Shown in pieces: positions 21,099 through 51,484 of a DNA stretch of 64,000 bases. This DNA comes from Actinomycetota bacterium (GTDB lineage: Bacteria > Actinomycetota > CALGFH01). The stretch lies in NCBI GenBank assembly GCA_035535495.1, contig DATLQA010000272.1, positions 15,452-79,451 of the forward strand, read 5' to 3'. The first letter of the stretch is position 1. Each line of letters opens with the position of its first letter. The position numbers were made by a program, and so were the translations under genes. Under the pieces are notes generated by a model, which had not been told where the DNA came from, made no database searches, and saw only the letters and a list, made by a program, of their open reading frames with translations.

Positions 21099-22069
21099 CA
21101 GACTCCCGTCTTGGCCGCCGACCTCTGGCGGCGGGCGATCCATGCTGCCTCGCTGGCGATCCCGTCGGCAAGGTCGACTTCGGGCCGGTAGCCGAGCAGG
21201 GCCTCCGCCCGGGTGCCGTCGGCGCCGGTGTGGCGGGCGTCGCCCGCCTGGGCCGGCTGGTGCACCACCCGCAGGCGCCGGCCGGTGGCGCGCCCGACCA
21301 GGTCGAGGACCTCGTCGAGGGTGACCCGGCGTCCACCCCCGACGTTGACCACCTCGCCGGCTGGCGCGGCCATCGCCAGCAGGTTGGCCCTGACCACGTC
21401 GGCGACGTGGGTGAAGTCGCGGGTCTGCTGACCGTCGCCGTAGACGGTGATCGGCGCGCGGGCGTAGGCCGCCTCCAGGAAGCGACGGAAACCCATGTCA
21501 GGGCGTTGCCTCGGCCAGTAGACGGTGAAGTAGCGCAGGGTGGTCACGGTCAGGTCGCTCACCGCCGGCTGCGCGTACGCCAGGCAGAGGTGCTCACTGG
21601 CCAGCTTGGTGACGCCGTAGGGGGAGACCGGGCGGGTGGCGGAGCTCTCGGTGGTGGGGTAGGTGGGCGCGTCGCCGTACACGCTGGAGGAGGACGCGGC
21701 CACCAGGTGGGGCACGCCCACGCGCGTGCAGGCCTCAAGGAGCCGCTGCGTGGCGATGATGTTGTGGCGCACGTAGAGGCCGAAATCGGCGCCCCAGGAG
21801 TGGCGCACCCCGGGCTGCGCGGCCTGGTGGAACACCACCGCCGCGCCGTCCAGGAGGTCGTCGAGGTGCAGCTCGCCGAGGTCGCCGTCGACCAGCTCGA
21901 AGCTGGGGTGGCCGGCCAGCTCGGCCAGGTTGGCGCGCTTCTCGGCGGGAGCGTAGTAGGGCGTGAAGGCGTCGATCCCGACCACCTCGTGGCCGGCCGC
22001 GACCAGCCCTTCGGCCAGGTGCGAGCCGATGAAGCCGGCCGCGCCGGTGACCACCACGTGGCCGTTCAC
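21098..22069 (-). CDS. NAD-dependent UDP-sugar epimerase (GalE/UDP-glucuronate 4-epimerase-like)
   Basis: VVTGAAGFIGSHL, HQAAQPGVR, SSSSVYG, YGVTK, LRYFTVY, RDFTHVAD. Confidence 0.9.
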   Translation of the reverse strand: MNGHVVVTGAAGFIGSHLAEGLVAAGHEVVGIDAFTPYYAPAEKRANLAELAGHPSFELVDGDLGELHLDDLLDGAAVVFHQAAQPGVRHSWGADFGLYVRHNIIATQRLLEACTRVGVPHLVAASSSSVYGDAPTYPTTESSATRPVSPYGVTKLASEHLCLAYAQPAVSDLTVTTLRYFTVYWPRQRPDMGFRRFLEAAYARAPITVYGDGQQTRDFTHVADVVRANLLAMAAPAGEVVNVGGGRRVTLDEVLDLVGRATGRRLRVVHQPAQAGDARHTGADGTRAEALLGYRPEVDLADGIASEAAWIARRQRSAAKTGV

Positions 22070-22980
22070 CGGGCCTCGCCGTCCAGCCGCGCGCGCAGCT
22101 CCACCAGGGCGTCGGCAGGGACGGCGACGTTGCCGCCGGCGCCCCGGCCGAGGGCGATGCCCGGCTTGTGGCTGCCGTGGTAGTCCGATCCGCCGGTGAC
22201 CAGCAGCCCGCGGCGCTCCGCCTGCCCGGCCCAGCGGCGCTGCTCGTCGCGGTCGTGCTGCGGGTGCCAGGCCTCGAGGCCGTCGGCCCCGGCCTCGAGG
22301 CACGCCGCCAGCACCCGGTCGCGGGTGATCGCGGGCAGCCGTCCGGGGTGGGCCACCACCGCCACCCCGCCGGCGGCGTGGACCAGGCGCACCGCCTCGG
22401 CCACCGGCAGCGACGGGGCCGGCACGTAGGCCGGGCGGCCAGGGCCGAGCCAGCGCTCGAAGGCGTCGGCCACGTCGGCCACCACACCGTTGGCGACCAG
22501 CGCCCTGGCGAAGTGGGCGCGGGACACCGCCGCCTCGCCGGCCAGCGCCGCGGCGTCGTCGTAACCGACCCCGGTGAGCACCCTCAGCCGCCGGCCGATG
22601 GCCCGGTTGCGCCCGCCCCTGCCGGCCCGGACGGCCGCGCAGCGGACCTCGATGCCGGCCGCCGCCAGCCCGCTGCCGTAGGCCAGCAGGTGGACCACCT
22701 CGCCTTCGGCCTCGGTGGTGAGCTCGCAGCCGGTCAGCACCTCGACGCCGAGCCGGCGCCCCAGGCTGCCGGCCGACTCGACCGACGCCAGGGTGTCGTG
22801 GTCGGTGACGGCGAGCACGCCGACGCCGGCCCTGGCCGCCGCGGCGACCAGCGCCTCGGGCGTGTCGCTGCCGTCCGAGGCGTGGGTGTGGCAGTGCAGG
22901 TCCACCAGCGGCGCCCTGGTGGGCCGGTGGCGCGCGGCCTGCTCCACCCAGGCGGTGGCGAACCCGGCCGGCATCGGCAT
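22066..22980 (-). CDS. PHP-domain phosphoesterase (TrpH/YciV-like; candidate PAP phosphatase)
   Basis: DLHCHTHASDG, VTDHDT, GCEL, VHLLAY, AHP, GGSDYHG. Confidence 0.88.
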   Translation of the reverse strand: MPMPAGFATAWVEQAARHRPTRAPLVDLHCHTHASDGSDTPEALVAAAARAGVGVLAVTDHDTLASVESAGSLGRRLGVEVLTGCELTTEAEGEVVHLLAYGSGLAAAGIEVRCAAVRAGRGGRNRAIGRRLRVLTGVGYDDAAALAGEAAVSRAHFARALVANGVVADVADAFERWLGPGRPAYVPAPSLPVAEAVRLVHAAGGVAVVAHPGRLPAITRDRVLAACLEAGADGLEAWHPQHDRDEQRRWAGQAERRGLLVTGGSDYHGSHKPGIALGRGAGGNVAVPADALVELRARLDGEAR

Positions 22981-22984
22981 GGCG

Positions 22985-23596
22985 TCAGCCGAGCGCGTCG
23001 AGTCGCGCGGCAATCTCGTCCTCCTCGATGGCGATGTAGAGGTCGCCAGGCTTGGTCAGCCCGAGCCGCTCCAGCGTGTCGATGACCTGCTCGGCCGAGC
23101 GCTCCACCGGCTCCCGATCGGTGTGCGCCACCAGCTCCGGGTCCTCCGGGGCCTCGTACGGATCGGAGACGCCGGTGAAGTTGGCGATCTCGCCGGCGAT
23201 CGCCTTGGCGTAGAGGCCCTTCGGGTCCCGCTCGGCGCAGGTCTCCAGCGGCGCGTCGACGAACACCTCGACGAAGTTCGGCACGGCGGCGCGGACCTTG
23301 GCGCGCGCCTCCCGGTAGGGCGAGATCGCGGCCACCACCACCGCCACGCCGTGCTTGGCGAGCTTGCCCGCCACGTAGCCGATGCGGGCGATGTTGGTGT
23401 CGCGGTCGGCCCGGCTGAAGCCGAGACCCTGGCACAGGTTGGTGCGGACCTCGTCGCCGTCGAGCAGCTCGACCCGGTGGCCACGGTCGGCGAGCGCGAC
23501 CGTGACGGTGCGGGCGAGGGTCGACTTGCCCGCACCGGAGAGGCCGGTGAGCCAGAGCACGAAGCCCGGTGAGTCGGACCAGGACTGTCCCGTCAT
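22985..23596 (-). CDS. cysC: Adenylyl-sulfate kinase
   Basis: [51 protein letters not shown]. Confidence 0.96.
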
Positions 23597-27766: not shown

Positions 27767-28567
27767 ATGAAGGTCGTGCTGTTCTGCGGCGGGCTCGGCC
27801 TGCGCATCCGGGAGCACTCCGAGCACATCCCGAAGCCGATGGTCAGGATCGGCTACCGGCCGGTCCTCTGGCACGTGATGCGCTACTACGCCCACTACGG
27901 GCACAAGGACTTCGTGGTCTGCCTCGGCTACAAGGCGGACGTGGTCAAGCGCTACTTCCTCGACTACGACGAGACCCTGTCCAACGACTTCGTCCTGTCG
28001 CAGGGCGGCGGCGACCGCCGGGTCGACCTGCTCGGCAGCGACATCGACGACTGGCGCATCACCTTCCTCGACACCGGGCTGTACGCCAAGATCGGCATGC
28101 GCCTCAAGGCGGCCCAGTCGCAGCTGGAGAACGAGGACCTGTTCCTCGCCAACTACGGCGACGTGCTCACCGACGCGCCGCTGCCCTCGCTGATCGAGGA
28201 CTTCAAGAAGCGCGACGCGGTGGCGGCGTTCATCCGCGTGCCGCCCAGCTACACCTTCCACGTCGTCGGGATGAAGGACGACCACCACGTCTCCCACATC
28301 GAGGACATCAAGACGACCGGGATCTGGCTGAACGGCGGCTACTTCATCTTCCGGCCGGAGATCTTCGACTACCTGCACGAGGGCGAGGAGCTGGTGGAGG
28401 AGCCGTTCCAGCGGCTCATCCAGGAGAACCGGCTGATCTCCTACCCGCACGAGGGCTTCTGGGCGCCGATGGACACCGTGAAGGAGCGGCAGGCCCTGGA
28501 GGCGATGTGGGAGGCCGGCGAGCCGCCCTGGGCGGTCTGGCAGGCCGGCGAGCAGGTCGGGCAGTGA
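27767..28567 (+). CDS. Second glucose-1-phosphate cytidylyltransferase-like nucleotidyltransferase
   Basis: MKVVLFCGGLGLRIRE...PKPMV, LGYK, ANYGD, WLNGGYF, FWAPMDT. Confidence 0.88.
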   Translation: MKVVLFCGGLGLRIREHSEHIPKPMVRIGYRPVLWHVMRYYAHYGHKDFVVCLGYKADVVKRYFLDYDETLSNDFVLSQGGGDRRVDLLGSDIDDWRITFLDTGLYAKIGMRLKAAQSQLENEDLFLANYGDVLTDAPLPSLIEDFKKRDAVAAFIRVPPSYTFHVVGMKDDHHVSHIEDIKTTGIWLNGGYFIFRPEIFDYLHEGEELVEEPFQRLIQENRLISYPHEGFWAPMDTVKERQALEAMWEAGEPPWAVWQAGEQVGQ

Positions 28568-29214
28568 TCCAGCTGCCGTTCCCGTCAGGCCGTGACGGGG
28601 GCCTGCGGGTGCTGGCCATCGGCGCGCACTCCGACGACATCGAGATCGGCTGTGGCGGCACCGTCCTCCGGCTGGTGGAGGACGGCCTGGCCGCGAGCGT
28701 CGGCTGGGTGGTGCTGTCCGCCGCCGGCGAGCGCGCCGAGGAGGCGCAGGCGAGCGCGGCCGCGTTCCTCAAGCAGGCGCCCGAGCACGAGGTGGTGCTG
28801 CGCGACTTCCGCGACGGCTTCCTGCCGTACTCGGGCTTCCAGGTCAAGGAGTTCTTCGAGGAGCTGAAGCGCTTCGACCCCGACGTGGTGCTCACCCACC
28901 GCCGCGACGACGTGCACCAGGACCACCGGCTGGTGGGGGAGCTGACCTGGAACACCTTCAGGAACCACCTGGTGCTCGAGTACGAGATCCCCAAGTACGA
29001 AGGGGACCTCGGCCACCCGAACCTGTTCGTGACCCTGGACCGGTCCCGCTGCGAGCGCAAGATCGAGCTGCTGATGGAGGGCTTCCGCTCCCAGCGTGAC
29101 CGCCGCTGGTTCACGGAGGACACCTTCTGGTCGCTGCTGCGCCTGCGCGGCCTGGAGTCCAACTCGCCCACCACCTACGCCGAGGCCTTCCACGCCCGCA
29201 AAGTGGTGATCTAG
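28564..29214 (+). CDS. PIG-L/LmbE family deacetylase
   Basis: AIGAHSDDIEIGCGG, DVHQDH, YEIPKY, AEAF; GTGA overlap with the upstream gene. Confidence 0.9.
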   Translation: MIQLPFPSGRDGGLRVLAIGAHSDDIEIGCGGTVLRLVEDGLAASVGWVVLSAAGERAEEAQASAAAFLKQAPEHEVVLRDFRDGFLPYSGFQVKEFFEELKRFDPDVVLTHRRDDVHQDHRLVGELTWNTFRNHLVLEYEIPKYEGDLGHPNLFVTLDRSRCERKIELLMEGFRSQRDRRWFTEDTFWSLLRLRGLESNSPTTYAEAFHARKVVI

Positions 29215-29290
29215 GCCCGGTCGGCGACGATCGTCCTCCCGGACCCAATACAGTGGTGCCGACCGGATCACCAGGGCGCGGGGAGGCGGC

Positions 29291-29836
29291 ATGGCATCGA
29301 GCCGGGACGCCGGCGCGGGCACGGTGGCGTCGCTGCGCGACGCGGAGGTGGCCGATCATCCGGCGATCCGCGAGATCATCACGGCCGCGTACCGGGAGTA
29401 CGAGACGGTGCTGCCGCCCGGCGGGTTCGAGATCTACCTCGAGGACCTGCTCGACCTCGACGGCCGCGCCGAGGTCGGCAGCCTGATCGTCGCCGAGCAG
29501 GCGGGCCGGGTGGTGGGCACCGTGACCTACTACGACGACGCCTCGGTCGAACGGCTCGGCTGGCCGTCGGGCTGGGCCGGCCTGCGCGCCCTCGGGGTCG
29601 ATCCGGCCGCGCGCGGGTTCGGCATCGGTCGCCTGCTGATGCGGGAGTGCTTCGACCGGGCACGCGCGGTGGGCGCCCCCGTCCTCTGCCTGCACACGGC
29701 CGCGTTCATGACCGCCGCGGTCACCATGTACGAGGAGATGGGGTTCTGGCGCGCGCCCAAGTTCGACTTCGACCCCAAGGACTACTACCCGGTCGCCGAG
29801 TCCGTCCAGGTGATCGCCTACCGCGTCGACCTGTGA
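29291..29836 (+). CDS. GNAT family N-acetyltransferase
   Basis: LRALGVDPAARGFGIGRLLM, LHT...AVTMYEEMGF. Confidence 0.88.
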   Translation: MASSRDAGAGTVASLRDAEVADHPAIREIITAAYREYETVLPPGGFEIYLEDLLDLDGRAEVGSLIVAEQAGRVVGTVTYYDDASVERLGWPSGWAGLRALGVDPAARGFGIGRLLMRECFDRARAVGAPVLCLHTAAFMTAAVTMYEEMGFWRAPKFDFDPKDYYPVAESVQVIAYRVDL

Positions 29837-47378: not shown

Positions 47379-47459
47379 TCAGATGCGGCGGCGGCCCAGG
47401 ATGAACATCACCAGGGCGATGATGGCGAGCACGATCAGGATGATCAGCAGCGTCCGCAC
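47379..47459 (-). CDS. 26-aa single-TM small protein (M)RTLLIILIVLAIIALVMFILGRRRI
   Basis: GAGGGGG RBS before GTG, 20 consecutive hydrophobic residues, basic tail, GC3-rich codons. Confidence 0.7.
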   Translation of the reverse strand: MRTLLIILIVLAIIALVMFILGRRRI

Positions 47460-47564: not shown

Positions 47565-47580
47565 CCAAACAGGTGTTCGA
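47565..47580. promoter_or_regulatory. LexA SOS box (Gram-positive/actinobacterial type)
   Basis: CCAAACAGGTGTTCGA versus consensus TCGAAC-N4-GTTCGA; just downstream of the -10 box and upstream of ruvC, a known SOS gene. Confidence 0.7.
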
Positions 47581-48926: not shown

Positions 48927-49958
<1,032 letters not shown>

Positions 49959-49978
49959 TGCCGGCCGGCGACGCGCCG

Positions 49979-50128
49979 CTACTCGAGCGAGGCGTCGATC
50001 GCCGCCAGGACGTCCTCGATGTCCTGCAGCAGCCGGGCCGCGTCCACGCCGACGGCCTCGACGCTCTGGGCGTCGGGTCCTGCCTGGCGCCGGCGACGTG
50101 CCTGGCGCCTGATCCGCACCGCCACCAT
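49979..50128 (-). CDS. 49-aa small protein with Pup-like helix
   Basis: AGGAGGAG RBS 5 nt before ATG; MVAVRIRRQARRRRQAGPDAQSVEAVGVDAARLLQDIEDVLAAIDASLE. Confidence 0.7.
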   Translation of the reverse strand: MVAVRIRRQARRRRQAGPDAQSVEAVGVDAARLLQDIEDVLAAIDASLE

Positions 50129-50456
50129 GCGACTCCTCCTGTGCTCGGCTCGCTGGCGTCGCCACCCTGGTTCCACAGGGCATTCGATCGGCGGTGCCAT
50201 CCGGTCTGGCAGGACTTCAGGGGACCATCGCGGCGTAGTTCTATCGAACTAGTACACAGCGGTGCAAGTGGTGCCCGGTCAGCCGCGTCGAAAACCTCGT
50301 TCGACCCCCCATGGGCGGTTGCGCTCCGGCCAGGGCATTCATAGGATGGCGGCTGCGCCGCGGCCCCAGCCGTGGCCTGCCCTCGTGCAACGCGGCCGAT
50401 CACGCCGTGATGCGCCGTCCCGGGCACTCCCCGGGCCTCCCGGAGGTCTTCACGCC

Positions 50457-50792
50457 ATGTCCAACGAAGGTGCGTCGTTCATCTTCATTGCGCTGATGTT
50501 CGGCTTCTTCTACTTCCTCATCATCAGGCCGCAACGCCGGCGCATGACCGACCTCCAGTCGCTGCAGCGGTCGCTCGAGCTGGGCGACGAGGTGGTCACG
50601 ATCGGCGGCATCCTCGGCACCATCCGCCGCTTCGACGGCGACATCGTCACCCTCGAGCTGTCGCCAGGGACCGAGGCGCGCGTCAACCGCCGCGCCATCT
50701 CCGCCCGCGTCGACAGCGCCGTGCCCGCCGCCGAGGAGCCGGGCGTGATCGCCGACGGCGCCGAGATCGACCAGGAGCGGGCCAAGGAATGA
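50457..50792 (+). CDS. yajC: Preprotein translocase subunit
   Basis: FFYFLIIRPQRRR, LELGDEVVTIGGILG, RRAI. Confidence 0.92.
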   Translation: MSNEGASFIFIALMFGFFYFLIIRPQRRRMTDLQSLQRSLELGDEVVTIGGILGTIRRFDGDIVTLELSPGTEARVNRRAISARVDSAVPAAEEPGVIADGAEIDQERAKE

Positions 50793-51484
50793 GCGTGGCC
50801 GAGCGCCGCCCACCAGGCGGCGAACTGCGGCTCCTCGACCAGGTCGCAGGCACCAAGGTCGTCCAGACCTACATCGCCCTCGCCGACCAGTTCACCGGTC
50901 AGCTCGGCTTCACCGAGCACGGCTTCCGGCACGCCAACCTGGTCGGGCACATCGCCTACAACATCCTCGCCCGGCTCGGCCACGAGTCGCGCGTGGCGGA
51001 GCTGGCCGCCGTCGCCGGCTACCTGCACGACATCGGCAACGTCGTCAGCCGCCAGAACCACCCGCAGAGCTCGGCGCTGATCGCCATGCCGGTGCTCACC
51101 GAGCTGGGCCTGCCGGTGGAGGACATCGGCCTGATCGTCGGGGCGATCGGCAACCACGAGGAGGAGCTCGGCCGGCCCGTCTCCCCGGTCTCGGCGGCGG
51201 TCAACATCGCCGACAAGTCGGACGTGCACCGGTCCCGGGTCCGCAAGGACGCGCGGGTCGAGTTCGACATCCACGACCGGGTGAACTACGCGGTGCGCCA
51301 CTCGTTCGTCCGGGTCGACGCCGAGCAACGGACCGTCACCCTCGAGCTCGACATCGACACCACCGTGTCCGACATCCTCGAATACTTCGAGATCTTCCTG
51401 ACCCGGATGATGATGTGCCGCCGGGCCGCCGAGGGTCTCGACTGCAAGTTCCGCATGACCGTCAACGGCAGCTCCCTGTTGTAG
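50789..51484 (+). CDS. HD-domain metal-dependent phosphohydrolase
   Basis: EHGFRHA, AGYLHDIGN, AIGNH, IADKSDVHRSRVR, HDRVNYAV. Confidence 0.88.
   Translation: MSVAERRPPGGELRLLDQVAGTKVVQTYIALADQFTGQLGFTEHGFRHANLVGHIAYNILARLGHESRVAELAAVAGYLHDIGNVVSRQNHPQSSALIAMPVLTELGLPVEDIGLIVGAIGNHEEELGRPVSPVSAAVNIADKSDVHRSRVRKDARVEFDIHDRVNYAVRHSFVRVDAEQRTVTLELDIDTTVSDILEYFEIFLTRMMMCRRAAEGLDCKFRMTVNGSSLL

Follow-up and report, generated by a model that had tools for sequence, protein, structure and literature searches.

A gene of 49 codons lies on the reverse strand of the window, the 64,000-nucleotide stretch of DNA that was analysed, within the 500-bp spacer that separates ruvB from yajC (Table 1). The gene is monocistronic, and the wider gene order runs pdxT-yebC-ruvCAB on one side of the spacer and yajC-HD-secDF on the other. 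Its product belongs to an uncharacterised, almost lysine-free family of small proteins from uncultured soil actinobacteria. No Pfam or NCBIfam model covers this family; a PHROGs search of the family gave scattered single matches only, and an NCBIfam search of 30 members gave one stray RiPP match.

Table 1 Features of the ruvB–yajC region and its surroundings, in window coordinates.
Feature	Position	Strand	Remarks
26-codon frame with GTG start	47379–47459	−	in the yebC–ruvC gap, opposite strand; product V/MRTLLIILIVLAIIALVMFILGRRRI; Shine–Dalgarno sequence AGAGGGGGA
LexA-type box CCAAACAGGTGTTCGA	47565–47580	+	two mismatches; just upstream of ruvC
ruvB	48927–49958	+	convergent with the small gene; stops separated by 20 bp
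Small-protein gene (stop included)	49979–50128	−	encodes the 49-aa MVAVRIRRQARRRRQAGPDAQSVEAVGVDAARLLQDIEDVLAAIDASLE; open reading frame, conserved family and codon-level coding evidence
Codons 30–48	49985–50041	−	acidic amphipathic helix resembling Pup, as predicted from AlphaFold2, hhalign and a PDB profile search
Codons 1–15	50084–50128	−	most conserved segment, M(V)AVRI(R/Q)...RRRR; Arg-rich, Lys-free, predicted unstructured
Shine–Dalgarno sequence AGGAGGAG	50133–50140	−	4 nt 5' of the ATG; equivalent GGAGG or GAAGGAG at equal distance in 10 of 10 lineages examined
Putative promoter of the small gene	50236–50267	−	TTGCAC (50262–50267), 18-nt spacer, TAGAAC
AT-rich palindrome TAGTTCgataGAACTA / TAGTTCTATCGAACTA	50236–50251		inside the putative promoter, in an otherwise GC-rich spacer; unique in the genome
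TAGGAT with flanking GGCGGCTGCGCC	TAGGAT 50342–50347; region 50330–50365	+	about 110 nt before yajC; no Rfam match
yajC	50457–50792	+	divergent from the small gene; own conserved upstream TAGGAT
HD-domain gene	50789–51484	+	231 aa; between yajC and secD; start overlaps the yajC stop

Two further reading frames of the neighbourhood deserve mention in their own right. The HD-domain gene is an unusual member of a yajC-secDF operon and is kept at the same place in all of the related contigs examined. The 26-codon frame between yebC and ruvC encodes what looks, from its sequence, like a single-pass membrane micro-protein, and gene callers put a gene of 26–45 aa at its counterpart in four related contigs (L041, L042, L045 and L070).

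The small open reading frame is a real gene. A search with the single sequence retrieved 24 close homologues of 48–55 aa, every one annotated as 'hypothetical'; a profile search of 1.8 billion representative sequences yielded 20 clusters defined at 50% identity, and a broader profile collected 59 proteins of 47–55 aa. Two homologue entries longer than the rest, of 67 and 73 aa, are mis-called starts. The ribosome-binding site, described as excellent in an earlier sequence-only reading of the locus, is present 4 nt from the ATG; the ATG, the Shine–Dalgarno distance and the length are all kept in these 10 lineages when compared at the DNA level. The start, Shine–Dalgarno sequence, length, N-terminal motif and helix motif are moreover retained down to 31–35% identity in about 60 sequences.

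The codon pattern agrees with this assignment. GC content at the third codon position (GC3) is 0.88–1.0, versus 0.40–0.59 at the second (GC2), the three positions standing at about 0.8/0.5/0.9–1.0. At least two codons are used in 11 of the 17 conserved amino-acid columns, defined as those with the same amino acid in at least 8 of 10 sequences, and these include CGG and AGG for one Arg. Family indels are multiples of three. The dN/dS ratio of the whole frame is only 0.5–1, because the middle linker evolves freely, so that the start, Shine–Dalgarno sequence, length and codon pattern, and not dN/dS, carry the argument for coding.

That the frame opened by chance in GC-rich DNA, or that a conserved RNA or DNA element accounts for it, is very improbable. 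Several open frames, the exact antisense frame among them, do cover the region, and in the close clade the first 45 nt are nearly invariant at all codon positions. However, synonymous codons vary at conserved residues, the Shine–Dalgarno sequence and ATG are kept in all lineages, indels come in multiples of three with the length held at 47–55 aa, and an Rfam search of the ruvB–yajC spacer gave no match, which speaks against an RNA element.

Two other frames over the region were considered and rejected. An extended frame of 73 aa starting from 50200 has an extension that is unconserved in G001 and G007, and the Shine–Dalgarno sequence precedes the internal ATG. The exact antisense frame (49955–50344, forward strand), which runs from the ruvB stop, is of low complexity and is not open in G001.

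The gene is carried by 4 of 22 genomes of the class, belonging to three of its nine genera. Its nearest public relative comes from a soil metagenome-assembled genome that NCBI labels 'Actinomycetes bacterium', and a search for related loci with the family alignment A1 returned only the G001 record. The order ruvB, small gene, yajC was seen in 11 contexts; one member has an IS110 transposase as its neighbour, and another a DUF2905 gene. The ruvB–yajC spacer measures 500–660 bp in carriers of the gene, versus 50–140 bp, free of open reading frames, in genus g4, which does not have it.

This distribution bears on an alternative that we consider unlikely: that the gene is an orphan, possibly acquired with a mobile element, whose product has a different protein partner or is dispensable, and that it entered the ruvB–yajC spacer of one sub-lineage in a single insertion and has been under weak selection since. 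The few genera, the lengthened spacer, the whole-frame dN/dS and the members next to the IS110 transposase and the DUF2905 gene would all suit such a history. The preservation of start, Shine–Dalgarno sequence, length and both motifs at 31–35% identity does not, nor does the stable position in 11 contexts, and no transposase or phage genes were found near the small gene in the window.

In the lineage of one member (P0035), the small gene is immediately preceded by an IS110-family transposase (L038, 300–1337; L039, 2–1177), which suggests that the ruvB–yajC spacer is a hot spot for insertion.

Conservation of the small gene's putative promoter extends over the close clade and, in part, to G002. 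The palindrome inside it is confined to the close clade and unconserved in distant members, and a genome-wide search for further copies found none. A scan for sigma-70 and terminator consensus sequences returned nothing relevant, and the 20-bp gap between the convergent stop codons folds no better than shuffled sequences. Versions of TAGGAT occur upstream of yajC in every genome of the class whose spacer was examined, with the small gene present or absent; the element probably represents either the −10 promoter region of yajC or a leader element.

A link to the DNA-damage response had been hinted at for the gene, and it found no support at the level of regulatory sites: neither a LexA box nor a RecA-NDp motif lies upstream of the small gene. 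The genome contains eight perfect LexA boxes (TCGAAC-N4-GTTCGA), all on other contigs, and no perfect copy anywhere of the RecA-NDp (PafBC) motif TGTCGGT-N8-TANNNT. That the gene lies next to ruvB seems to follow from its insertion into a stable spacer. Elsewhere in the window, a LexA-type box with two mismatches is present just upstream of ruvC (Table 1).

The small protein has a two-part architecture, with conserved sequence at both ends: M(V)AVRI(Q/R) and a run of RRRR at the N-terminus, then D(E)xxLL...V(L/V)xxIDxxL. The invariant or near-invariant N-terminal columns are A3, V4, R5, I6, R11, R13 and R14. AlphaFold2, run with the family alignment, predicts a coil over residues 1–29 (pLDDT 66–80; 66–74 over codons 1–15) and a single helix over residues 30–48 (pLDDT 97–98). 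The helix has a heptad pattern composed of L33, L34, I37, V40, L41, I44 and L48, and its I44-D45 pair is invariant. The N-terminal 16 residues carry a charge of +7 and the remainder −7. Lysine occurs once in 1983 family residues, versus 2.8% in six neighbouring proteins, and arginine makes up 14.8%. Some members have a C-terminal extension of 4–7 residues, and three (P0026, P0027 and P0049) have lost most of the Arg run. A Foldseek search of the AlphaFold2 model against the PDB gave no matches, as expected for a lone helix.

The second Pup helix in the groove of PafA or Dop corresponds to about residues 51–58 of the Mycobacterium tuberculosis (Mtb) protein (ENAEDFVRAY), and Pup ends in GGQ or GGE, the side chain of the terminal Glu being ligated by PafA. 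The genome studied here has a complete arc-dop-pup-prcB-prcA-pafA locus on contig C116, the products of which all exceed NCBIfam cut-offs, and the single PafA and single Dop of the genome are both encoded there, PafA at 27978–29333 and Dop at 21502–22986. The small gene is on contig C272, beside ruvCAB and far from any paf or prc gene, as had been stated. The genome's own Pup is canonical (72 aa, end QKGGQ, net charge −12), and AlphaFold2 predicts for it a coil over residues 1–17 and one long helix, an object of the same kind as the small protein. Pup was also found in 17 of 21 relatives searched, including the other three carriers of the small gene. On Mpa, Pup residues 21–51 form a helix that lies antiparallel on the coiled coil, with the disordered N-terminus threading into the pore (PMC8755798); bound to PafA or Dop, it adopts two shorter helices within a groove (PMC8223512).

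The resemblance of the small protein to Pup was first noticed in the segment LLQDIEDVL, which matches LLDEIDDVL of Mtb Pup at 6 of 9 positions. The count is correct, but the match is not beyond chance: the six-frame translation of the genome contains 63 matches to LLDEIDDVL at 6 of 9 positions or better, or roughly one in every 64 kb, and the Pup encoded by this genome (LLDEIDEVL) agrees with LLQDIEDVL at only 5 of 9. Nor did this register survive, since the profile comparisons put the helix one heptad downstream. In the register that they support, EDVLAAIDASLE is aligned with DDLLDEIDDVLE, so that family positions 31–48 face K31–E48 of Mtb Pup and the protein therefore stops where helix 1 of Pup ends. 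The family consensus aLLeatedVLdaIDaaL then stands against KLTEETDDLLDEIDDVLE of Pup, and L33, E38, V40, L41, I44, D45 and L48 against L32, D37, L39, L40, I43, D44 and L47 of Mtb Pup.

The similarity of the two profiles exceeds that of controls. The family was compared by hhalign with an alignment of 16 Pups of the lineage, in three alignment versions: A1 (probability 79.5%, P of 1.5e-5), A4 (87%, P of 4.1e-6, score of 30.8) and A5 (78.7%, P of 1.7e-5). Reversed profiles score 20 versus 30.8, and free column shuffles reach a mean of 8 and a maximum of 16. Shuffles that keep the hydrophobic/acidic/basic pattern have a mean of 13.5 (sd 3) and a maximum of 25, none of 300 reaching 30.8. All five subclades align with Pup in one register (P from 8e-6 to 1.3e-3) and always score above the reversed control, two of them at a P of only about 1e-3; doubling the family brought no gain in signal (A5 versus A4). 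When the family profile was searched against 177,635 distinct PDB sequences, five matches appeared at E ≤ 10, of which the top four are Pup, the best with an E-value of 0.28. Within the genome, a Pup HMM of the lineage applied to 59,915 six-frame segments gave the candidate as its best non-Pup match (11.9 bits), and the family helix profile gave Pup as its second non-self match; the E-values of the Pup comparisons in the own genome are 0.81, for the former, and 4.7.

The sequence-to-profile E-values all lie close to what chance gives, or above it. For the window protein, neither Pfam nor NCBIfam returned Pup at E ≤ 10, the NCBIfam Pup model TIGR03687 matched none of 30 family members, and BLASTP of the window protein against the genome's own Pup gave no alignment. 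Across 58 members, Pup is the most recurrent Pfam family (six members, best E-value of 0.034 at 14.7 bits, where the cut-off is 27); FATC, a domain of eukaryotes whose match is certainly spurious, recurs at a similar level (four members, best E-value of 0.036). In one member (P0038), residues 6–47 align with positions 8–50 of the 69 in the Pup profile. The aligned stretch comprises 18–22 residues of acidic heptad helix, a common pattern, and the candidate was picked for its likeness to Pup, so the Pup tests are not independent of that selection. All of the alignments have the family stop opposite Pup E48, ahead of helix 2, and no bridging form with a longer C-terminus bearing helix 2 or GGQ/E occurs among the 59 proteins. 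The profile comparison with Pup yielded a similarity that is above controls yet borderline. On these profiles the family lies outside the Pup family; that its helix is truly related to that of Pup, whether through common ancestry or because both converged on one partner, is a substantial, though minority, possibility.

Rather unlikely, in our judgement, is a role unconnected with Pup, in which the Arg-rich N-terminus would bind nucleic acid and the likeness to Pup would be the coincidence of an acidic amphipathic helix. The strand-like pattern V-R-I-Q-L-T followed by RRRR recalls Arg-rich peptides that bind RNA, or the strand with which ribbon-helix-helix repressors (Arc/MetJ/CopG) read DNA. 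Shared with such proteins are a short Arg-rich N-terminus of alternating hydrophobic and polar residues, a size of about 50 aa and a palindrome in the protein's own promoter, the last of these only within the close clade. At least two chains would pair through the acidic heptad helix, or the helix would fold back on the basic arm, and the protein could regulate its own gene through the palindrome. The N-terminal columns being the most conserved of the family, the abundance of Arg with virtually no Lys, the monocistronic gene with a genome-unique palindrome in its putative promoter, and the near-chance Pup E-values, with FATC recurring equally often, are all in keeping with such a role.

However, no nucleic-acid-binding relative was found in Pfam, NCBIfam, PHROG or the PDB, and neither Pfam nor PDB profiles matched a ribbon-helix-helix protein. 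AlphaFold2 predicts one helix, not the two of that fold, after a 29-residue coil with a 12-residue linker rich in Pro and Gly. Most of the Arg run is missing from the three members named above. The palindrome is not family-wide, and the promoters of distant members, when searched for inverted repeats, shared no operator, which weakens the idea of an autoregulator. Binding to nucleic acid would also leave unexplained why the helix scores higher against Pup than pattern-preserving shuffles do.

Compared with Pup (PF05639 / TIGR03687), the small protein has the same general make-up: both are small, with a predicted disordered N-terminus and one acidic amphipathic helix, and the family pattern L-x-E-x-T/x-D/E-x-[VL]-L-x-x-I-D-x-x-L aligns with K31–E48 at a nearly equal distance from the N-terminus. 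The Pup segment compared is the central motif LxEExDDLLDEIDxVL, which joins the coiled coil of Mpa/ARC (hhalign probability, 79–87%; PDB E-value, 0.28; HMMER E-values at chance level), and the small protein occurs in an organism with a full Pup-proteasome system. The Pup-like layout first claimed for it holds for the coil followed by an acidic helix, but not for the basic N-terminus as a feature of Pup, given the charge of −12 on the genome's own Pup: the N-terminus of the small protein carries +7, whereas Pup is acidic overall. The small protein further differs from Pup in its length of 49 aa as opposed to 64–72, in lacking lysine, helix 2 (ENAEEFVxxYVQK) and a GG(Q/E) end, in its location off the dop-pup-prcBA locus, in its restriction to few genera, and in falling under the Pfam cut-off or escaping detection.

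The C-terminus decides against a conjugated modifier. The window protein ends in ...DASLE, eight residues after LLQDIEDVL, and does lack the GG(E/Q) tail, as the sequence-only reading had observed; the further proposal of a variant modifier, ligated through its terminal Glu, is effectively refuted. Among 40 unique members only 10 end in Glu, as the window protein does, the others ending in Asp (9), Gly (8), Arg (5), Ala (3), Ser (3), Thr (1) or Pro (1), in some cases after 4–7 extra residues. Both the di-Gly and helix 2 are absent, and the only PafA and Dop belong to the canonical locus. With helix 2 and the GG(Q/E) end missing and the last residue unconserved, the small protein is therefore not ligatable, and if it is Pup-like its sole mode of action would be non-covalent docking, with ARC the most plausible partner. 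Ubiquitin-like proteins of the Hub1/UBL5 type have no di-Gly end and act by non-covalent binding. They offer an analogy, not a relative: the small protein would likewise be kin to a conjugated tag, having lost the part needed for conjugation and relying for any function on binding, although fold, lineage and partners are wholly different.

The sole hypothesis with positive evidence on its side, borderline as that evidence is, would make the small protein a mimic or decoy of Pup. We tentatively propose, with the chances still against it, that it is a non-covalent mimic of the Pup helix that docks on ARC. Its layout is like that of the first 48 residues of Pup, with about 29 disordered residues followed by the acidic amphipathic helix, and the Pup counterpart of this helix joins the N-terminal coiled coil of ARC/Mpa and forms helix 1 in the groove of PafA and Dop. 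The helix would dock non-covalently and antiparallel on the ARC coiled coil, as Pup does, which would leave its Arg-rich N-terminus directed towards the pore of ARC. Bound in this way, the peptide would rival pupylated substrates for the three docking sites, or be pulled in and degraded; having no lysines, it could not be pupylated itself. In a weaker version, it would occupy the Pup groove of PafA or Dop. Such a lysine-free 'half Pup', seated on the ARC coiled coil or in the PafA/Dop groove, might tune Pup-dependent degradation, a role that we regard as doubtful.

Several observations count against a mimic of the Pup helix. The most conserved part of the family, the Arg-rich N-terminus, is without a counterpart in Pup, and the family helix has 19 residues, versus about 30 for Pup on Mpa. 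Moreover, the gene is unlinked to the Pup locus and far more sparsely distributed than Pup (4 of 22 genomes of the class versus 17 of 21 relatives).

Should the likeness to Pup be coincidental, the small protein would still define an orphan family, about 60 members strong and covered by neither a Pfam nor an NCBIfam model, with odd properties: freedom from lysine, an invariant MAVRI...RRRR and a fixed position between ruvB and yajC. Its importance would then be modest and local to one uncultured soil lineage. To our knowledge, no natural protein regulator imitates Pup, and none was noticed in a full-text literature search; if the proposed role is true, the small protein would be the first endogenous mimic or antagonist of Pup. 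In mycobacteria, the interface at which Mpa/ARC and PafA recognise Pup is a drug target. A natural helix of 19 residues able to compete for it would show how little of Pup suffices for docking and would provide a ready-made peptide probe or inhibitor scaffold, for which Mpa, PafA and Dop of Mtb and M. smegmatis are well established.
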